A stretch of DNA of 64,000 nucleotides from an uncultured Chloroflexia bacterium (GCA_963822175.1 CAWGGJ010000003.1:582802-646801), one strand, 5' to 3'; numbered from the stretch's first letter, positions 40,840 to 53,019 are shown. Translations and numbers: made by a program. The notes: generated by a model not told the origin, from the sequence alone.

Positions 40840-41148
40840 GGGAGACAGGAAATCATTCTCGATTTTCGTTCTTATAAATAATAATCGGTATCGGTGTGAG
40901 AATTTCATCCATCACGCAAGCTCCTTCTTCCTGCATTTTTGGGATGGAATGAGCATAAGACTAAAACATGATCATGATGCAATGACCCGGCTTCCCAGCC
41001 ACGATAATCAGAGGAACCGATGAATGGGTATGATCAGGGCAGTGATAACTTGTCGGTTCAATCGGCTGTTTGTTTTATTAACCAGGATGACGCTAATATA
41101 TGTTTCTAAATTTATCCAAAACCTCTTCCCCTCTTTTCCTTAAACCCC

Positions 41149-41176
41149 TTGTGGATTAGAACATTTGTGCTATAAT
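41149..41176 (+). promoter_or_regulatory. Promoter-like head of element D (extended -10)
   Basis: TTGTGG (41149-41154), 16-nt spacer ending in TGC, then perfect TATAAT (41171-41176). Identical to 50924-50951. Confidence 0.5.
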
Positions 41177-41746
41177 AAGGGTGCGTGAAACACATCCGAA
41201 ACCGCGAGCGTTCTTTGCGAGGGGTGAGGTGCGATCTTTGCACCCCCTGTCGCGAACGCTCTTTGTGAGCGAGAAACCGCGAGTGCAGGGTTCTTCCCGA
41301 AACCTTGAGCGTTCTTTGCAAGAGGCGTTCTTTGTCCGCAGTGTCGCGACCGTTTTTTGGGAGCGATACGAGAGGCATTTTTTGGGAGCGAAGCAGTCGC
41401 GAGGGCTTTATACGAGCGATCCAGAAACCAATGCCAAAATCTCATTTCTCCACCCTCTCGTTAATGGATCATCCACCTGCTGTTCACCAGCAACCCGCAA
41501 AGCGGGTTTCGTGGCTTTTGCAGCCGGTGGATTCATCTTCCCGAGGAGAAGATTACAACGTCGCAAAAACCGCTCCTCGTACCTCGCTCTCACAAATCGT
41601 TCGCGATGCTTCGGGAAAAATGCACCCTTGATGACACCAAAAATAATCTCCAAACCCGCAAAGCGGGTTTCGTGGCTTTTGCAGCCGGTGGATTCATCCA
41701 CCGGCACAGGATTATCTATGATAATGATATCTTTCACCAGCGGAAG

Positions 41747-41966
41747 CTGGCAGCGTTTATCTGTGGTTAAAGGTTTTACCTTTTTTAATCAATGTTTTTC
41801 ATCTGTGTGCATCTGTATTTATCTGTGGTTCAAGGTTTTATCTTTATAAATAAGAGGTTTCCATCCGTGTGCATCTGCGTTATCTGCGGTTAAAGGTTTT
41901 ATCTTTATAAATAAAAGTTTTTCATCCGTGTGCATCTGCGTTTATCTGCGGTTAAAGGTTTTATGG
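41747..41966 (+). repeat. Tandem units with phased ATCTGYGK 8-mers (element D)
   Basis: Four units (one partial) of the form GTTTTTCATCTGTGTGCATCTGTATTTATCTGTGGTTCAAGGTTTTATC plus an AT-rich spacer. Ten 8-mers are mostly spaced 10 nt apart. Confidence 0.9.
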
Positions 41967-41996
41967 CACGAATTGAATCCATTTGTATCCCTAAAA

Positions 41997-42400
41997 CTAT
42001 TCAAATGTGGTGGTCCAATTAAACTGGACACAAAAATGGCTTATCTTAGGGGGATGTCTGCTCCACTCTTCGAATTCGACCGGTGTCAGATATCCCAATG
42101 ATGAATGGATGCGTGTTGTATTACGCACATCCCTCAAGAAACGACCAATCTGGCGATACGTATTTGCATAGTTTTGATAATCTGACCAATCCACCTCCTC
42201 TTCTTTGATCGTGCGTATCAAGCGCTCGTCATACCCAGTTTCCCAAGTCTCACTTTTGGTAGACATATTGATCTGCACATGCCGGGCGTGTAAAGCATTC
42301 GCTTACTCAAGTGTCGCTTAATGGATACCCTGGGTACTGACGTGGATCATCCTCTCATAAAATAAGTGGTAAGCGTAATAACGAATCGTCGTTTTCTAAA
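41997..42400 (-). mobile_element. IS3-family transposase (rve/integrase core) 3' remnant, pseudogene
   Basis: Track ORF 41997..42278 encodes ...GYDERLIRTIKEEEVDWSDYQNYANTYRQIGRFLRDVRNTTRIHSSLGYLTPVEFEEW, a typical IS3 OrfB C-terminus. Upstream, the same frame reads LFYERMIHVSTQGIH-stop-ATLE-stop-ANALHARHVQINMS. There are two in-frame stops and no N-terminal half. Confidence 0.8.
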
Positions 42401-46063: not shown

Positions 46064-47260
46064 AGGTGATGTCACCCTCGATTTGCCATCCAGGTGTATG
46101 AGCTCGGATTGAGTGTCAATCCCGGAGCAACCCTGACCCTCCTTGAAGGCGTGGTTGTGAAGTTACCGGACAGGCGAGCTCCAATCTCACAATTTATGGT
46201 AACCTTAAACATCCAGGGGACAGAATTTAAATCCTGTCGTGATCACGTCTTTAAAAGACGATACATACGGCGGAGACACAAATAATGACGGAGCCTCCAC
46301 CTCACCGGCTCCCGGTGACTGGGGTGAAATTTGGTTATATGGCACGGGTAATCTCAATCTTGATCATGCCATTGTGCGCTACGGAGGCGGTTATCTTGGT
46401 TGGGAACATGGCACGATCACTGCCTATATAACCTTATACCCAAGTGATGGTGCTTCGGTTTCCATAAGTAACAGTGTCATTGAGCATAATTTATATGATG
46501 GAGTATTTCTGCACGATGAGGACGCGACTACCCTTTCCAACTTATCGATTACCAGCTCCACGATCCGCAACAACAATTGGAATGGAGTTACCACCGAAGG
46601 CATAGGGATCGGATTTGCCATAATAAGAGGAAGCTCAATATATAATAGCGCAGGATATGGCGTTTACAATGGAAATATTAGTAATGGTTTCGACGCCCGC
46701 TATAACTACTGGGGCTCGGACAATGGTCCTGCTCCTTATGGTCAAGGGGATGCCATCAACACGTACCAGGAGTGGGATCCCATTTGCGAATGTGTCGTCA
46801 CTAAACCAGCAGTGATATTCACCCCTCCGCTGGATTCTTCCGGTCAGATTGTCGGTCCACCACCCGCCCAGACTTACGGCACCCCCTCCACCACCACGAG
46901 CATTTCAGTGGCTGACCCCGTCAACGTGGTTTTCGGCAACTACACCTACCAGTATACCGACCTGGCTTTCCCGACACTGGGTGAGGGCTTTACCTTCCTG
47001 CGTACCTACAACTCCGCCAGCACTGATTTTGGTCCGCTAGGCTTAGGCTGGACGCATAGTTATGACATCTTCGCCACCCAACCCACCACCAACACGGTCG
47101 TTATCCTGCGCGAGGATGGACGCAAGGACATGTACACCGATGCGGGTGGAGGCAATTACCTGTCACCCCCCGGCGTCTACGACACATTACGCTTCGTCAC
47201 CGACCACTTCGTGCTCACCCGCAAAGACCAGGCGGTCTATTCTTTAACCCGGATGGCACA

Positions 47261-50200
47261 TTGGCTAGCCTGGCCGATCATACTGGTAACACAACGGCAT
47301 TTTCTTATTCAGGTGGCAACCTGGTCTCACTCACCGAGCCCGCCGGTCGACAGGTCACTTTCACTTATTCAGGGAACCTGCTTACACAGATCAGCGATCC
47401 TCTTGGACGCACAGTCAGTTTTAGTTACACCGATAGCTTGTTGACCAGCGTGACCGATGTCAATGGTCATAGCACCACCTATGCCCACGATGGTTCTGGT
47501 AAGCTGGAGTCGATCACCGATGCCAACGGTCATACATTTGTCCACAATTTCTACGATACCGAAGGGCGCGTGGTTGAGCAGCGCGATGCGCTGAATAACC
47601 TGACCACATTCTCTTATGATCCCACTACACGCATCAACTCGGTCACCAACCCGCTTAATTTCACCACCCTTTACCAGTATGACAGTGCCTATCGCCTGGT
47701 CTCTGAGACTGACCCTTTAGGTTATACCCAATCGTATGCCTTTGACGCCAACAACAACCAGATCAGCGCCACCGATAAGCGCGGTAATACCACCACTTTC
47801 AGCTATGATACCCGCGGTAATGTCCTCACCATCACCGCTCCTCTGGGAGTTGTCCGAAGCTTCAACTATGATGATCATAACAACCTGCTCACCGAGACCG
47901 ATCCGCTCAGTCATTCAACCAGCTATGCTTATGATGGAGCAGACAACCTAACCAGCATCACCGATGCTTTGAATAACACCTCCACATTTACCTATAACTC
48001 TTTGGGGCAGGTGCTCGCCTCCACTGGTCCACGCGGGTACACAGCCTCCTTCGGCTATGATGCCTATGGTCACCAGGATAGCCTCACCGATTATTATGGA
48101 AATGAAACTACCTTCATCTTTGATATCGTCGGACGCAAGCTGAGCCAGACCGACGCCCTGGGGCATACCACCACTTACTCGTATGATAATGCCAACCATT
48201 TGTTGACGGTTGATGAGCCAATGGGTCGCTCAACCAGCTACACCTATGACCTGGTCGGGAACCGCCTGTCTGTTACCGACCCAATGGGTGGCAACACTGC
48301 CTCCACCTACGATGCCAAGGACCGCATGGTAACGGTCACTGACCCCTTAGGACATGTCACCACCTATGGCTATGATGCGCTCAACAACCAGGTCTCCATT
48401 ACGGATGCATTGGGGCACGTCACCACCTTCGAGTATGATGCCCTTAACCGCAATATCTCCACGATTGATCCGATGGGGCATACCACAAGTTCCCAGTATG
48501 ACCCGGATGGCAACCGCACCCAGTTAATTGATGCTAATGGTAACAGCACCTATTATGTTTATGATCAGCTCAGTCGCCTGACCTCTGTTACCGACGCTGC
48601 TGGTGGGACTGTGAGCTACACTTATGACATGGTCGGCAATCGCCTCTCCATGATGGATGCCAACTCTCACACCACCAGCTACACCTACGATGCTCTGAAC
48701 CGGTTGGCAACCTTCACAGATCCCTTGAGCTTTGTCACCAGTTATACCTATGACCAGGCGGGCAACCGCATCACCTGGAATAAGCCTGATAATTCCACCG
48801 TCCATTACACCTACGACCGGCTTGACCGGCTGGAAACAGTGACTGCCACGGGGATCAACATCAGCTACACCTACGATGAGCTGGGGAACCGCCTTACTTT
48901 GGTCAATTCAACCGGCACCACCAGCTACACCTATGACGATCTGAACCGTTTGGTCGAGGTCGTCAACCTGCAAGGCAATCTGGATTATGCCTACGATCTC
49001 AACAATAACCGCACCTCGTTGACGTACCCGGATAGCAAGACTGTCATCTATACCTATGACCCGGCAAATCGTTTGATCACCGTAACGGACTGGGCTTCTC
49101 AAATCACGACCTATAGCTATGATTACACCAACCTGCTGACCGGGATCGCCTACCCCAACGATGTTGTTGCCAGCTATGCATATGACGAAGCCAGCCGTCT
49201 GATAAGCATTGGGTACACCGGGCCTGCTCCCTTGGAATCCTTCAGCTATACCCTGGATGCGGTCGGGAACCGGCTGAGCATGGCTGACGCAGATGGGAAC
49301 ACCAGCTATACCTACGATGTTCTATACCGTCTCACCGGTGTCAGTTATCCAGTTGGATCCCCTGCCAGTGTCAATTATGCCTACGATCCAATGGGCAACC
49401 GGCTGAGCATGACTCAGGATGGTGCTACCACAGCATATACTTACGATGCAGTGGATCGGCTGTTGTCCACTGATACCAGTGGAATGGTCACCAGCTTCAC
49501 CTGGGATAATAATGGCAATATGCTCACCAAGGGGGGCCAGTCCTTCACTTGGGATGCCCTTAATCGCATGGTCGCCTGGACAGATGGCACGAACACATCC
49601 AGCTATACCTACAACGGTGATGGTGTGCGCCTAGGTCGGACAGTGAATGGTTCAACCACAGCATATCTGCAGGATCTGGCTGCTGGTTTGCCCGTGGTAC
49701 TGAGAGAGACCACTTCAGGCGTGAACACAGATAATGTTTATGGAAATGACTTGATCACCTCCATCGATAGCAGTGAAATTTCCTCCTTTTACCATACCGA
49801 TGGACTGGGCAGCACGCGCCTGCTGACCGATAATAGCAGTGCTGTCACCGACCGCTACAGCTACGATGCCTTTGGTTCACCTCGCACCCATGCCGGCTCG
49901 AGCACCCAGCCCTTCACCTTCACCGGCGAGCAGGTCGACCCCGAGGCAGGTCTGGTGTTCTTGAGAGCAAGATATTATGATCCAAGAACTGGCAGATTTA
50001 TTAGCTCTGATCCATTTTTTGGAGACATTATTCTCTCCCAATATATAAATCGCTACACATATACACATAATCGACCAATAATTACCACAGATCCTAGTGG
50101 TAAGTTTCCTCTCATCGTTTTAATTGGTGGTGGAATAGTTGTATATAAGGTGGGTAATTATGTTGTAAACTACGTTGATTCTTATATTAAAGCAATTTCA

Positions 50201-50602
50201 TATAATTCGTTTAAGCAATCTATGTGGAATGCGACAGACGCAGAAACAGCTAGCTATTATCAGTTCAAAGCTGCAGAATATAGTCATGAATTTACACAAT
50301 CTGTAAAGAAAGATACACTTCCTCCATATGGCACATCAATGAACTTTAGCCCAGTTCCTCAAAGCTTTTCGGAAGTGGATGCAATCGGTAGAATTATTAC
50401 CTTTGTAGAAGAAAATACCTTAAAATTTACTGATTGGTTATTTAGTCAAAATAGAGGAGATGTAAAAGGTGAAATGACTGAAAATTTGTATCAAGGGGAG
50501 TCTTCTATTCAAAGATCTCAACTTGAAATAAATTTCTATGGTTCTGCCTTGGGAGCAAGAGGAGGCGTGTATTTTGGTATCCCAGCTAGCCATGGAAAAT
50601 AG
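47261..50602 (+). CDS. RHS repeat-associated core fragment with C-terminal tip (largest intact piece of the toxin gene)
   Basis: 1113-aa ORF with dozens of YD repeats (e.g. TYSYDALNRL, YTYDELGNRL). Core end FLRARYYDPRTGRFISSDPF...NRYTYTHNRPIITTDPSG is followed by ~165 aa of unrecognised sequence. Its true 5' continuation is in ORF 46239..47444. Confidence 0.9.
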   Translation: MASLADHTGNTTAFSYSGGNLVSLTEPAGRQVTFTYSGNLLTQISDPLGRTVSFSYTDSLLTSVTDVNGHSTTYAHDGSGKLESITDANGHTFVHNFYDTEGRVVEQRDALNNLTTFSYDPTTRINSVTNPLNFTTLYQYDSAYRLVSETDPLGYTQSYAFDANNNQISATDKRGNTTTFSYDTRGNVLTITAPLGVVRSFNYDDHNNLLTETDPLSHSTSYAYDGADNLTSITDALNNTSTFTYNSLGQVLASTGPRGYTASFGYDAYGHQDSLTDYYGNETTFIFDIVGRKLSQTDALGHTTTYSYDNANHLLTVDEPMGRSTSYTYDLVGNRLSVTDPMGGNTASTYDAKDRMVTVTDPLGHVTTYGYDALNNQVSITDALGHVTTFEYDALNRNISTIDPMGHTTSSQYDPDGNRTQLIDANGNSTYYVYDQLSRLTSVTDAAGGTVSYTYDMVGNRLSMMDANSHTTSYTYDALNRLATFTDPLSFVTSYTYDQAGNRITWNKPDNSTVHYTYDRLDRLETVTATGINISYTYDELGNRLTLVNSTGTTSYTYDDLNRLVEVVNLQGNLDYAYDLNNNRTSLTYPDSKTVIYTYDPANRLITVTDWASQITTYSYDYTNLLTGIAYPNDVVASYAYDEASRLISIGYTGPAPLESFSYTLDAVGNRLSMADADGNTSYTYDVLYRLTGVSYPVGSPASVNYAYDPMGNRLSMTQDGATTAYTYDAVDRLLSTDTSGMVTSFTWDNNGNMLTKGGQSFTWDALNRMVAWTDGTNTSSYTYNGDGVRLGRTVNGSTTAYLQDLAAGLPVVLRETTSGVNTDNVYGNDLITSIDSSEISSFYHTDGLGSTRLLTDNSSAVTDRYSYDAFGSPRTHAGSSTQPFTFTGEQVDPEAGLVFLRARYYDPRTGRFISSDPFFGDIILSQYINRYTYTHNRPIITTDPSGKFPLIVLIGGGIVVYKVGNYVVNYVDSYIKAISYNSFKQSMWNATDAETASYYQFKAAEYSHEFTQSVKKDTLPPYGTSMNFSPVPQSFSEVDAIGRIITFVEENTLKFTDWLFSQNRGDVKGEMTENLYQGESSIQRSQLEINFYGSALGARGGVYFGIPASHGK

Positions 50603-50923
50603 TGTCTATTCAACAAGATAAATCCTATAATCGACTCGAATTATTATTAACTAACCTTTTTGGTAAATAAAGGCAGGTTTAGTGCCGTTACTACTTAGAA
50701 CTATTCGCAGTCTTTTATCCTTTACTTATTCCTCTCCTATTTTCGTAGAAAATGGTGGAGCTTGCAGTGTCGGCATGCTTTCACTAGCAGGTGGAACTTT
50801 TACCAAATAAATTACTATTATAAACTGATCGTATGTCAGCCAATTCATTGTTTGTATCATGGCTTATCGCTCAAAGATCACCAACGCCCTTTCATTAGAA
50901 ACCTTAAATTAATCATAACACTC

Positions 50924-50951
50924 TTGTGGATTAGAACATTTGTGCTATAAT
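50924..50951 (+). promoter_or_regulatory. Promoter-like head of element E (extended -10)
   Basis: TTGTGG (50924-50929), 16-nt spacer ending in TGC, then TATAAT (50946-50951). The block 50923-50960 is identical to 41148-41185. Confidence 0.5.
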
Positions 50952-51412
50952 AAGGGTGCGCTCTTTGCACCTAAAACCGCGAGCTTCCTTTGCGAGGGGT
51001 GAGGTGCGATCTTTGCACCCCCTGTCGCGAACGCTCTTTGTGAGTGAGAAACCGCGAGTGCAGGGTTCTTCCCGAAACCTTGAGCGTACTTTACGAGAGG
51101 CGTTCTTTGCGAGTGGTGATGTGCGCTCTTTGCACCCCCTGTCGCGAACGCTCTTTGTGAGCGAGAAACCGCGAGTGCAGGGTTCTTCCCGAAACCTTGG
51201 GCGTCCTTTGCGAGAGGCGTTTATACAGTGTCTTCATGGATTCACTGCTTTACCCGCTGTCGCGAAGGCTTTATACGAGCGATCCAGAAACCAATGCCAA
51301 AATCTCATTTTTCCACCCTCTCGCTATTGGATCACCCACCTGCTCTTCACCAGCAACCCGCAAAGCGGGTTTCGTGGCATTTTCAGCCGGTGGATGAATC
51401 CACCGGCTGAAG

Positions 51413-51684
51413 CTGGCAGCGTATATCTGCGGTTAAAGGTTTTATCTGTTTACTTAACGGGTTTTCATCTGTGTATATCTGTGTTTATCTGTGGTTAATG
51501 GGTTTTATCTTTTTACATAGCGGGTTTTCATCTGCGTTTATCTGCGGTTAAAGGTTTTATCTATATATATAATAGGTTTCCATCCGTGTTCATCTGCGTA
51601 TATCTGCGGTTAAAGGTTTTATCTTTTTTTATAACGGGTTTTCATCTGTGTATATCTGTGTTTATCTGTGGTCAAAGATTTTAT
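51413..51684 (+). repeat. Tandem units with phased ATCTGYGK 8-mers (element E), 200 bp upstream of dnaN
   Basis: Five units, for example GGGTTTTCATCTGTGTATATCTGTGTTTATCTGTGGTTAATGGGTTTTATC plus an AT-rich spacer. Twelve 8-mers in total. Confidence 0.9.
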
Positions 51685-51885
51685 GGCACGAATTGAATCC
51701 ATTTGTTTCCTTAATTCAATTCAAATATTCCCTTCCCTTCCACCTTCCTCCCATGAGCCTGCTCAACTTTTCACCCTCATCCCGCACAGTTCTCCCCGAT
51801 TACTGGAAAATTTCCGCCTATCGTTGTATACTCAGAGCACGCTTGAGCGCTCTCTACGCGCTCCCAACCGAGGAGAAGTTCTGAT

Positions 51886-53019
51886 ATGAGAGTAACCGTC
51901 CTGCAAGAGAATCTGGCTCACGGCCTGAGCATCGTCTCGCGTGCCGTATCCCCCCGCAGCACCCTGCCCGTGCTGGCCAACGTCCTCGTCGCCACCGATG
52001 AAGGTCGCTTGCGCCTATCCGCCACCAACCTTGAGTTGGGCATCACCTGTTGGATCGGTGCCAAGATCATCGAGGAAGGCTCCACCACCGTCCCCGCCCG
52101 CACCTTCAACGACCTTGTTGCCACCCTCCCCGCTGACCAAATTGAGATGACTCTCAACGTCCGCAACCAGAAGCTGAACATCCGTTCCGCCGCATCCAAC
52201 ACCGATATCAACTGCATCGATTCCCAGGAATTCCCTCCCATGCCCACGCCGGACCTATCGGATGCCATCCCCATCAACGTGACTGAGCTGAAGGAGATGA
52301 TCCAGCAGGTGGCGTTTGCCGCCTCCACCGATGAAGCCCGCCCGGTGCTTACCGGCGTTTTGCTCTCTGCCCAGGGTAACCAGATCACCATGCAGGCGGC
52401 TGACGGTTTCCGCCTCTCCATCCGTAAGGCTGAGCTCTCCTCCGCCCTTCCCCGTCCGATCAAGGCCATCATCCCCGCCCGCGCCCTGGCCGAGCTGGCT
52501 CGCGTCGCTGGCGATGGCGACACCACCGTCACCATGGTCCTGCCTCCCAATCGCGGCCAGGTCATCTTCCACATGAAGGATGTCGAGCTGGTCTCCCAGC
52601 TCATTGAAGGCTCCTACCCCGACCTGGAGCAGGTCATCCCCCGCTCCCATCAGACCCGCACCGCCATCTCCACCCCGGCAATCCTCAAAGCCTGCAAGCA
52701 GGCAGAGATCTTTGCCCGTGAGGGCACCCACATCGCCCGCATCCAGATCACCCCCGGTGTCGATAACCAGCCGGGTACAGTTGAGATCTCCGGCCAATCC
52801 GAGGAGACCGGCTTCAACCAGACCGTGATCGATGCCAACATCGAGGGGAGCGGTTTACTCATTGCATTCAACGTGCGCTTCCTGCGCGAAGTCCTCGACG
52901 TGATCAAGACCCCCAACGTCATCCTTGAGACCAATATTGAAACCACACCCGGCGTATTCAAACCCGCCGGTGAGGATAACTTCCTGCACGTCATCATGCC
53001 CATGCACCTGGGTGGTTAA
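51886..53019 (+). CDS. dnaN: DNA polymerase III beta sliding clamp
   Basis: 377 aa with GAGGAG RBS. N-terminus MRVTVLQENLAHGLSIVSRAVSPRSTLPVLANVLV...LRLSATNLELGI. C-terminus ...FLHVIMPMHL. Confidence 0.95.
   Translation: MRVTVLQENLAHGLSIVSRAVSPRSTLPVLANVLVATDEGRLRLSATNLELGITCWIGAKIIEEGSTTVPARTFNDLVATLPADQIEMTLNVRNQKLNIRSAASNTDINCIDSQEFPPMPTPDLSDAIPINVTELKEMIQQVAFAASTDEARPVLTGVLLSAQGNQITMQAADGFRLSIRKAELSSALPRPIKAIIPARALAELARVAGDGDTTVTMVLPPNRGQVIFHMKDVELVSQLIEGSYPDLEQVIPRSHQTRTAISTPAILKACKQAEIFAREGTHIARIQITPGVDNQPGTVEISGQSEETGFNQTVIDANIEGSGLLIAFNVRFLREVLDVIKTPNVILETNIETTPGVFKPAGEDNFLHVIMPMHLGG

Follow-up and report, generated by a model that had tools for sequence, protein, structure and literature searches.

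A compositionally foreign RHS C-terminal cassette with an uncatalogued helical tip and a clade-wide tail in a Chloroflexia genome

A stretch of 64,000 nucleotides from an uncultured Chloroflexia bacterium (GCA_963822175.1 CAWGGJ010000003.1:582802-646801), referred to here in its whole length as the window, carries an RHS/YD-repeat gene whose 3' end differs sharply from the rest of the gene. The RHS locus occupies 42.0-50.9 kb between two 0.8-kb direct repeats (41141-42006 and 50916-51726), and dnaN lies at 51886, beyond the locus and the right-hand repeat. The open reading frame (ORF) 47261-50599 matches PF05593 (RHS/YD repeats; E 2.5e-127, 23 stretches), DUF6531 is found upstream of the repeat region, and the protein carries a Sec signal together with CBM96 and beta-helix surface modules. 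Its shell ends in a Rhs_assc_core domain (residues 70-149 of the translated piece 49655-50599), in which a direct reading shows the two Asp-Pro motifs of an autoprotease, GRFISSDP and RPIITTDPSG, and autoproteolytic release of a cargo from the RHS shell is predicted on this basis. The features discussed below are as follows, with GC3 standing for the GC fraction at third codon positions.

47225-47260 (+): apparent 1-nt frameshift in the RHS gene (RKDQAVY / FNPDGTLASL), reading-frame change at ~47240
49862-50101 (+): Rhs_assc_core domain, the end of the RHS shell, finishing in DPSG (TIGR03696, E 2.2e-21)
49955-49961 (+): compositional breakpoint and putative recombination junction (change-point 49958; GC3 0.62-0.77 to ~0.2), within a block 88-92% identical to loci L119 and L120
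49958-50101 (+): apparently imported AT-rich core end of ~48 codons (GC3 0.22; Arg encoded by AGA, four times)
50102-50602 (+): C-terminal tip of 166 amino acids (aa) plus stop, 18.6 kDa, pI 5.7, member of a rare uncatalogued family
50102-50176 (+): hydrophobic N-terminal helix of the tip (KFPLIVLIGGGIVVYKVGNYVVNYV), Kyte-Doolittle 19-residue mean 1.83
50321-50404 (+): most conserved family motif, PPYGTS..P.PQSF..DAIGRIITF, where near-invariant columns cluster
50552-50599 (+): Gly-rich end plus clade-wide tail (..GGVYFGIPASHGK-stop), common to at least five unrelated tip types
50603-50888 (no strand): AT-rich 3' flank of the cassette, without a credible gene (GC 34.7%, short ORFs only)
50889-51726 (+): element E, the boundary of the cassette and outside it, a direct repeat of 41141-42006

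Base composition changes abruptly within the conserved end of the RHS core. An earlier note on this DNA had estimated by hand about 62% GC for 49801-49920 and about 36% for 49981-50100, and the computed values are 61.7% and 35.8%. A change-point scan with paired 150-bp windows placed the strongest break at 49958 (GC difference 0.31), and sliding windows also show a sharp break near this position. Because the TIGR03696 match spans 49862-50101, the switch does fall inside the core end, as that note had claimed; it lies between GLV and FLRARYYDP, 48 codons ahead of the DPSG/K boundary. The RHS ORF up to 49954 has 52.5% GC, compared with 35.2% for 49955-50602 and 34.7% for 50603-50925, in a genome of 48.3% GC where only 1.1% of 970-bp windows are equally AT-rich. 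Amino-acid composition does not account for the drop, since synonymous sites shift with it. GC3 is 0.62 in the core and 0.63-0.77 in the final windows ahead of the break, then 0.22 over 49 core-end codons and 0.23 in the tip, while arginine passes from CGC (24/38 codons) to AGA (8/10). Codon usage, proposed earlier as a check along with sliding-window GC, thus gives the same answer. At its other end, the AT-rich tract had been drawn to 50925. GC is indeed low up to there, but similarity to a genus-wide repeat that heads element E already starts at ~50889, so the foreign tract stops slightly ahead of 50925.

The exchange of RHS tips is a textbook phenomenon, and comparison with other RHS genes supports its occurrence here. 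A core-end alignment search of named genomes gave 79 loci, the two best being L119 (PABH01000026.1) and L120 (DIWN01000073.1), both from Anaerolineaceae metagenome-assembled genomes (MAGs). Their RHS cores share 50-75% aa identity with the window core over more than 400 residues. This identity reaches 88-92% across residues 888-912 (FTFTGEQVDPEAGLVFLRARYYDP), falls to 52-56% for residues 913-937, and is ~0-15% past residue 947, in the tips. Similarity to both loci in blastn ends at window position 50004/50005. In L119, GC drops from 0.49 to 0.29 at the matching point of the core end, and the tips of L119 and L120, which are unrelated, are low-GC as well. One core therefore bears three unrelated tips, with its most conserved block straddling the break, which supports recombinational tip swapping and agrees with the earlier suggestion that a foreign tip was brought in at the conserved core.

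The same comparison points to the kind of donor involved. Ahead of the break, the window core is 52-54% identical to a clade of RHS genes that share a C-terminal tail (described below) and 24-38% identical to other RHS genes of the genus; past it, the imported core end (49958-50101) is 53-63% identical at the aa level to core ends of this tail-bearing clade. Since the core on both sides is closest to that clade, the donor appears to have been one of its low-GC members. Among 40 relatives, no DNA similarity to the RHS gene was found, and the only DNA matches lie in the head of element E (38 nt). Five of the 21 other genomes of the genus carry RHS genes, with cores only 24-44% identical. A search of the whole genome for the orphan tip or immunity cassettes that the earlier note had thought worth seeking found no orphan tip and no additional RHS core end; the genome holds a single core end and a single tail. 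A member of the clade, L020-22, does carry an orphan cassette (P0013) behind its main RHS gene; this cassette repeats ~230 aa of the core and has a different tip.

The compositional break, the core and tip boundaries, and the polymorphism of tips on a shared core are all directly observed, and they support the view that the tract is a foreign C-terminal cassette derived from recombination inside the core end. We propose that the crossover took place in the most conserved core-end stretch (FTFTGEQVDPEAGLVF/LRARYYDP), and that the donor was a member of this Chloroflexota RHS clade with low GC. The exchanged parts would be the last ~48 codons of the shell with the autoprotease Asp-Pro motifs, the entire cargo and ~290 bp of 3' flank, giving a cassette that would run from 49958 to about 50890 in the single RHS/YD-repeat gene of this Anaerolineae genome. 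Acquisition of the cassette in this way is the genuine, well-delimited and ordinary part of the finding. Less ordinary is that three related Anaerolineaceae genomes place the crossover inside the core-end domain, so that the autoprotease motifs move together with the cargo.

The tip belongs to a family that is defined here by its TPYGTS motif, and alignments show that it has all of the defining features. Members open with a hydrophobic helix right after DPxGK, followed by a polar helical stretch, a motif of the form K(T)A..TPYGTS.SGPPPTSF..DAIGEI.GF, a Trp/Phe-rich amphipathic helix and a Gly-rich end. The hydrophobic segment that the earlier note had seen after DPSG is confirmed by its hydrophobicity, which lies above the transmembrane threshold in the window (1.83), at 1.9-2.2 in close relatives and at 1.8-2.2 over the family. 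Invariant residues of the wider family are K70 (just upstream of 50321), P75, T78, G96 and F101, and D93 and E48 are conserved in close members; no His, Cys, Ser-His or acidic pair is conserved across the wider family. A glycine-zipper reading of the first helix was considered and rejected, as the (G/A/S)xxxGxxxG spacing is not present.

The assessment that a tip of ~165 aa could not be assigned to a toxin family also held. The tip gave only a chance match in Pfam (E 0.038, below the cut-off) and none in NCBIfam or PADLOC. A PDB sequence-profile search (E up to 10) returned chance matches only, such as an S-layer protein (E 0.027), with no Rhs or Tse5 chain, and Foldseek of the tip model against PDB found no match below E=1. 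Across 1.8 billion representative proteins, HMMER identified two real relatives. One, P0003 (E 8e-6, 36% identity to the tip), is attached to an RHS core end. The other, P0002, is a fragment 97% identical to tip residues 92-154 on a 1375-bp contig of an independent Logan assembly; its end reads in a different frame, so that the GIPASHGK tail is lost. A search from P0003 added P0007 and P0008, as well as the more distant P0009, P0010 and P0012, and a metagenome scan added L018. Aligned with hhalign, the window tip matches the close trio at 96.9% probability (E 1.3e-10). The family is very rare, with six members among billions of proteins; it was found on five metagenome contigs, always joined to an RHS core. 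There is no second copy in the genome. Neither the tip alone nor residues 925-1113 of the full ORF gave a match in a word-index protein search, and no tip relative was found in a two-sequence alignment search of genome and metagenome contigs or in plasmid and phage collections at DNA and protein level. The family profile gave only sub-threshold matches in 400 genomes of the phylum.

No credible immunity ORF was found downstream of the tip, in 50603-50925. The ORFs past the tip stop encode 22, 42 and 62 aa on the plus strand and 44 aa antisense, and none of these start-to-stop ORFs has a hydrophobic segment above the transmembrane threshold. The earlier inventory was right about a 62-aa ORF overlapping element E (50762-50950, ending inside its repeated head), but the antisense ORF has 44 aa and not 47. 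The longest stop-free frame in the 3' flank, at 83 codons, extends into the repeat element and is only marginally unusual compared with shuffled sequence (P=0.04). In the relatives of the tip, the sequence next after the tip is as follows.

L005: convergent AP-endonuclease gene
L004: 371 bp without an ORF, up to the contig end
L003: co-directional gene for a 232-aa lipoprotein-like protein
L018: co-directional gene for a 289-aa membrane protein

The downstream proteins of L003 and L018 are unrelated to each other, though these tips are 50-61% identical to other close members. The 3' flank of the window has no similarity to the regions downstream of relatives, and when the stop-to-stop frames that follow eight tips were compared all against all, no common peptide emerged. 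The earlier note had proposed searching other genomes for the same tip with a partner gene, and regarded local loss of the immunity gene as one explanation; relatives were found, but they have no conserved downstream partner, and the same is true of most loci of the clade. Across the clade, L006, L023, L024, L020-main, L120 and L128 are followed by a convergent gene, and the neighbours of the remaining loci are mutually unrelated (PDDEXK_3, toxin-antitoxin pairs, insertion sequence (IS) fragments and, in L121, a 326-aa membrane protein). For the tip family, the absence of a conserved immunity partner therefore looks like a family trait and not a local loss, since the relatives lack one too and the next gene is often convergent. 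This is not claimed for the whole clade, because two small co-directional ORFs downstream of the tip in L119 could be a broken immunity gene.

A second feature shared with other RHS genes is the tail at the very end of the protein. Its consensus is [S/N]WGxPPSxGK-stop, ten residues that follow a Gly/Ser-rich run, and the window version is YFGIPASHGK-stop. The tail was found in at least 14 loci and on at least five unrelated types of tip.

Window, L003, L005 (after a contig frameshift) and L018: helical TPYGTS tips with the tail
L004: helical TPYGTS tip with a compatible end split over two frames, after a frameshift
L024 and L006: P0009 and P0010 tip types with the tail
P0013, P0014 and L125: Gly-rich, beta-like tips with the tail; L124 has a Trp-less variant
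L123, L128, L122 and L020-main: tip types of these loci, each with the tail

Degenerate variants are found in L119 (SSWGKPLSAMK), L120, L121 and L124. Of the 79 named loci, only those closest to the window core have the tail, and nearly all of these are annotated as Chloroflexota; the tail-bearing L122 is labelled as a Gammaproteobacteria MAG. Cyanobacterial, acidobacterial and other RHS genes in this set are without it. The tail is kept at the protein level over a GC range of 35% to 66%, and the residue after DPxG in the clade is usually K. To our knowledge, and within a literature search that was not exhaustive, a constant C-terminal tail on such RHS cargoes has not been described.

Taken together, we favour, with somewhat better than even confidence, the view that the window holds an exchanged cassette encoding a rare, helical, membrane-acting and non-enzymatic cargo, with a shell-linked tail and no cognate immunity gene. 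That the tip is a small, non-enzymatic, membrane-interacting cargo is suggested by its sequence. The invariant residues K, P, T, G and F, without a conserved His, Cys or acidic pair, argue for a non-enzymatic role. A membrane-acting role is suggested by the first helix, which passes the transmembrane threshold, and by an AlphaFold2 (AF2) model with three helices and a disordered tail, in which the hydrophobic segment falls within the first helix. The size of 18.6 kDa fits an RHS cavity (Tse5-CT, 16 kDa; PMC10684867). The cargo would consist of the hydrophobic helix after the DPSG/K site, two to three amphipathic helices around TPYGTS..PPxSF..DAIG, a Gly-rich linker and the tail. A Sec-exported RHS shell may enclose this cargo, which would be released by autoproteolysis and, once delivered, may insert into a target membrane and act without enzymatic activity by depolarisation or pore formation, as Tse5-CT does. 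The tail would work with the shell as a signal for exit, threading or docking, outside the toxic activity; this role is proposed by analogy with Tc toxins, whose cargo exits the cocoon with its free C-terminal region ahead (PMC6868009). As the family appears to have no cognate immunity gene, the producer itself is presumably not a target, and this may be the reason why the gene is missing.

Several points weigh against this interpretation. The membrane activity is deduced from sequence, and the structural follow-up of the residues after DPSG that the earlier note had suggested came back without a PDB-profile match or a Foldseek hit. The AF2 model, based on a seven-sequence alignment, has low confidence (mean predicted local distance difference test, pLDDT, 44.5; helices 5-43, 47-71 and 91-116, disordered end). 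The hydrophobic helix is not a canonical glycine zipper, and P0010, a distant relative, lacks it. No donor of the cassette was identified. In two of five close relatives (L003 and L018), the co-directional exported or membrane protein that follows the tip could be a non-homologous immunity protein. Known pore-forming polymorphic toxins, such as Tse5, CdiA-CT ionophores and EsxX, do have immunity genes (PMC10684867, PMC11630599, PMC12744356), and a missing immunity gene therefore fits a pore model poorly. Finally, the RHS gene appears to be frameshifted upstream, and a genuine frameshift would mean that no single protein is made from the locus. The apparent frameshift at ~47240 sits within 'tattcttt', where one added base would fuse the DUF6531 ORF (46239-47444) with the RHS ORF (47261-50602), and more apparent reading-frame breaks occur further upstream, in earlier fragments of the gene. 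A sequencing error is a live possibility, since metagenome contigs of relatives (L004 and L005) also show frameshifts inside their tips.

Four alternatives to this interpretation were considered. If the cassette was a classical toxin/immunity pair whose immunity gene was deleted here, for example through rearrangement of element E or the island, the loss might be tolerated in a gene that is already a frameshifted pseudogene. The apparent frameshifts, the IS remnant and 0.8-kb direct repeats that flank the locus, the ~290 bp of AT-rich gene-less DNA past the tip and an open frame marginally longer than chance are all in line with such a deletion. However, five relatives of the tip family are without a homologous downstream gene, the neighbour in L005 being convergent and those in L003 and L018 being unrelated despite their similar tips; most other tail-bearing loci also lack a partner; and the tip is intact, with all family features including the terminal tail. 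We consider local deletion quite unlikely for these reasons. The absence of a conserved immunity gene in family and clade would equally be expected if the tip were no toxin at all, but a structural or regulatory extension of a surface RHS protein, with the helix as an anchor or shell lining and the tail as a sorting or processing signal. The lack of conserved catalytic residues, the signal-like constancy of the tail, the Sec export with surface modules and the non-toxic roles of YD shells in teneurins (PMC8765631) agree with this. Hypervariability on a conserved core, foreign composition and an orphan cassette in the clade are instead signatures of diversifying conflict systems; the helix is absent in the P0010 and Gly-rich tip types and so is no general anchor; and the autoprotease motifs, as read directly, are kept, which implies release of the region (PMC8765631). 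A non-toxic role is unlikely.

The third alternative is an enzymatic toxin of a new fold, with a target that is lacking or shielded in the producer and with the helix serving for entry only. Several RHS tips of the genus do open with a hydrophobic helix that is followed by different domains, one of them with HExxH, and the T6SS (type VI secretion system) DNase Tde1 requires an N-terminal glycine-zipper helix for translocation (PMC10240207). K70 and T78 are conserved, as are D93 and E48 in close members. Nevertheless, only ~90 ordered residues remain past the helix, predicted as two helices and a loop, the wider family conserves no His, Cys, Ser-His or acidic dyad, and neither profiles nor folds match any enzyme, leaving an enzymatic toxin with a slim chance. 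The AT-rich tract might, in principle, be a chimeric join at a conserved RHS motif, given that this metagenome-assembled genome comes in 14 contigs, the RHS locus has repeats and apparent frameshifts, and the junction lies within a motif found in many RHS genes. Such an artefact is extremely improbable. The reading frame continues across the junction and finishes in the clade-specific tail, the core on both sides of the break comes from the same RHS clade, and L119 has a GC drop at the matching point. Sequence typical of the genus resumes at ~50889, so that an artefact would require two misjoins within 1 kb, and the nearly identical tip fragment P0002 (97%) comes from an independent assembly.

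The favoured reading of a membrane-acting cargo without an immunity gene can be set against several known systems. As in RHS/YD polymorphic toxins (Rhs of E. coli, Salmonella and Dickeya, and WapA of B. subtilis; PMC3482391), there are RHS repeats, a Rhs_assc_core with DPxG, a hypervariable low-GC tip on a conserved core and, in the clade relative L020, an orphan cassette; a Sec signal with surface modules is shared with WapA-type proteins. In contrast to these toxins, the breakpoint here lies ~48 codons ahead of the core/tip boundary and not at it, the residue past the cleavage motif is K rather than L or W, no cognate immunity gene is present or conserved in relatives, and the tips of the clade share a constant C-terminal tail. 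The nearest functional analogue of the tip is probably Tse5-CT, a pore-forming cargo of 16 kDa that belongs to the Rhs effector Tse5 of Pseudomonas aeruginosa (PMC9637101, PMC10684867). Both are small (16 versus 18.6 kDa) and hydrophobic or amphipathic, with non-enzymatic action being a proposal for the window tip. Tse5-CT is enclosed in the RHS shell and freed by an aspartyl autoprotease, and the same mode is proposed here. However, the PDB profile search detected no sequence similarity between the two, and Tse5 differs in its delivery by the T6SS and in having an immunity protein, Tsi5.

Other systems resemble single parts of the cargo. For example, Tox-WTIP (PMC3482391) is also a predicted non-catalytic, membrane-spanning helical domain at RHS C-termini, but it has two membrane helices with RxxR and Wx[ST]IP, whereas a direct reading of the window tip finds one hydrophobic helix and neither motif, and the tip is without a Pfam match. 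The helix itself is reminiscent of Tde1 (PMC10240207), where a hydrophobic, Gly-containing helix also opens the delivered fragment, although the window helix departs from the canonical (G/A/S)xxxGxxxG pattern and no enzymatic domain lies behind it. Because several RHS tips of the genus share such a helix ahead of different domains, it may be an entry module as with Tde1. For the tail, the analogy is with the hypervariable region of the Tc toxin TcC, which stays unfolded inside an RHS-type cocoon; its N-terminus lies at the cleavage site, its free C-terminus leaves first, and translocation of the C-terminal part ahead of the rest needs no specific C-terminal sequence (PMC6868009). A specific tail is conserved here, and there are no TcA or TcB partners.

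Three aspects of the cargo are out of the ordinary besides the position of the crossover: it belongs to an essentially unknown and seemingly non-enzymatic family, the usual toxin/immunity pairing is missing over this family and most of its RHS clade, and unrelated cargoes of the clade finish in one conserved 10-residue tail. A broader generalisation, which we offer only tentatively and regard as somewhat unlikely, is that the Chloroflexota RHS clade represents an undescribed format, with exchangeable cargo placed between the DPxG-K site and the C-terminal tail. The tail would then be a shell-specific signal required on every swapped-in cargo, and cargoes, among them the helical TPYGTS family, would hit non-kin targets and therefore travel without immunity genes. 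How cargo is released from RHS shells is an open question outside T6SS and Tc systems. If the tail is indeed a delivery signal, it would provide a handle on this process in monoderm-type or Chloroflexota bacteria, as well as a simple sequence tag for such cargoes in metagenomes.

Further observations concern the tail and the tips of relatives. The tail pattern P-[PA]-S-x-G-K-stop (50579-50599) resembles the cleavage motif D-P-S-G-K (50093-50104), a likeness that is clade-wide. A search of 400 genomes of the phylum with the tail DNA pattern gave one match, L019, which runs antisense to a TadE-like ORF and was rejected as chance. The tip ORF is frameshifted in L004 (6160-6830) and L005 (600-760); L005 has ..WGGPPGAGK-stop in another frame, and L004 reads ..SSWGGP in one frame and ..PAKGK-stop in another. 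These are probably assembly errors, and the L004 contig names are of long-read style. The best matches of a NifS-like gene in L003, in a Meiothermus MAG and an Anaerolineae MAG, were uninformative as to the taxonomic placement of this contig. In two loci, L020-22 and L124, the Gly-rich (P0013-like) tip has a PDDEXK_3 protein of 264 aa next to it that is nearly identical in both. In L020-22, an inverted block of small genes, one of them weakly matching PIN, lies between the main RHS gene and the orphan cassette. Elsewhere in the genus, RHS genes (L027-L034; G001:C11, G020:C3, G007:C57) form arrays of core-end fragments, with six in G001:C11. Their tips often open with a hydrophobic helix after DPSG-H (HCPWCIVIGAVIGG.., HCVICVIVLGVAL.. 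and HCPFCIAIPFVG..), followed by different domains; one has a HELGH metallopeptidase motif, and none has the GK tail.

A direct reading identifies a 93-aa remnant of an IS3-type (rve-like) transposase C-terminus at 41997-42278 (-), at the left end of the RHS locus, where it follows element D and precedes the RHS gene. Elements D and E share a promoter-like head TTGTGGATTAGAACATTTGTGCTATAATAAGGGTG (50889-50960; 41141-41185), which occurs at many sites per genome in 21/21 other genomes of the genus and in none of the other genera of the family and order searched; an Rfam search over 40-54 kb gave no match. The region ahead of dnaN is not syntenic in four relatives, and three of these have neither an RHS gene nor an S8 peptidase upstream of dnaN. 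The fourth, G007:C57:507900-516600 (L035), from the same genus, has a dnaN gene 93% identical to that of the window and also carries an RHS locus directly upstream, with a core only ~29% identical, a different tip and a second RHS fragment. The site upstream of dnaN may be an island hotspot.

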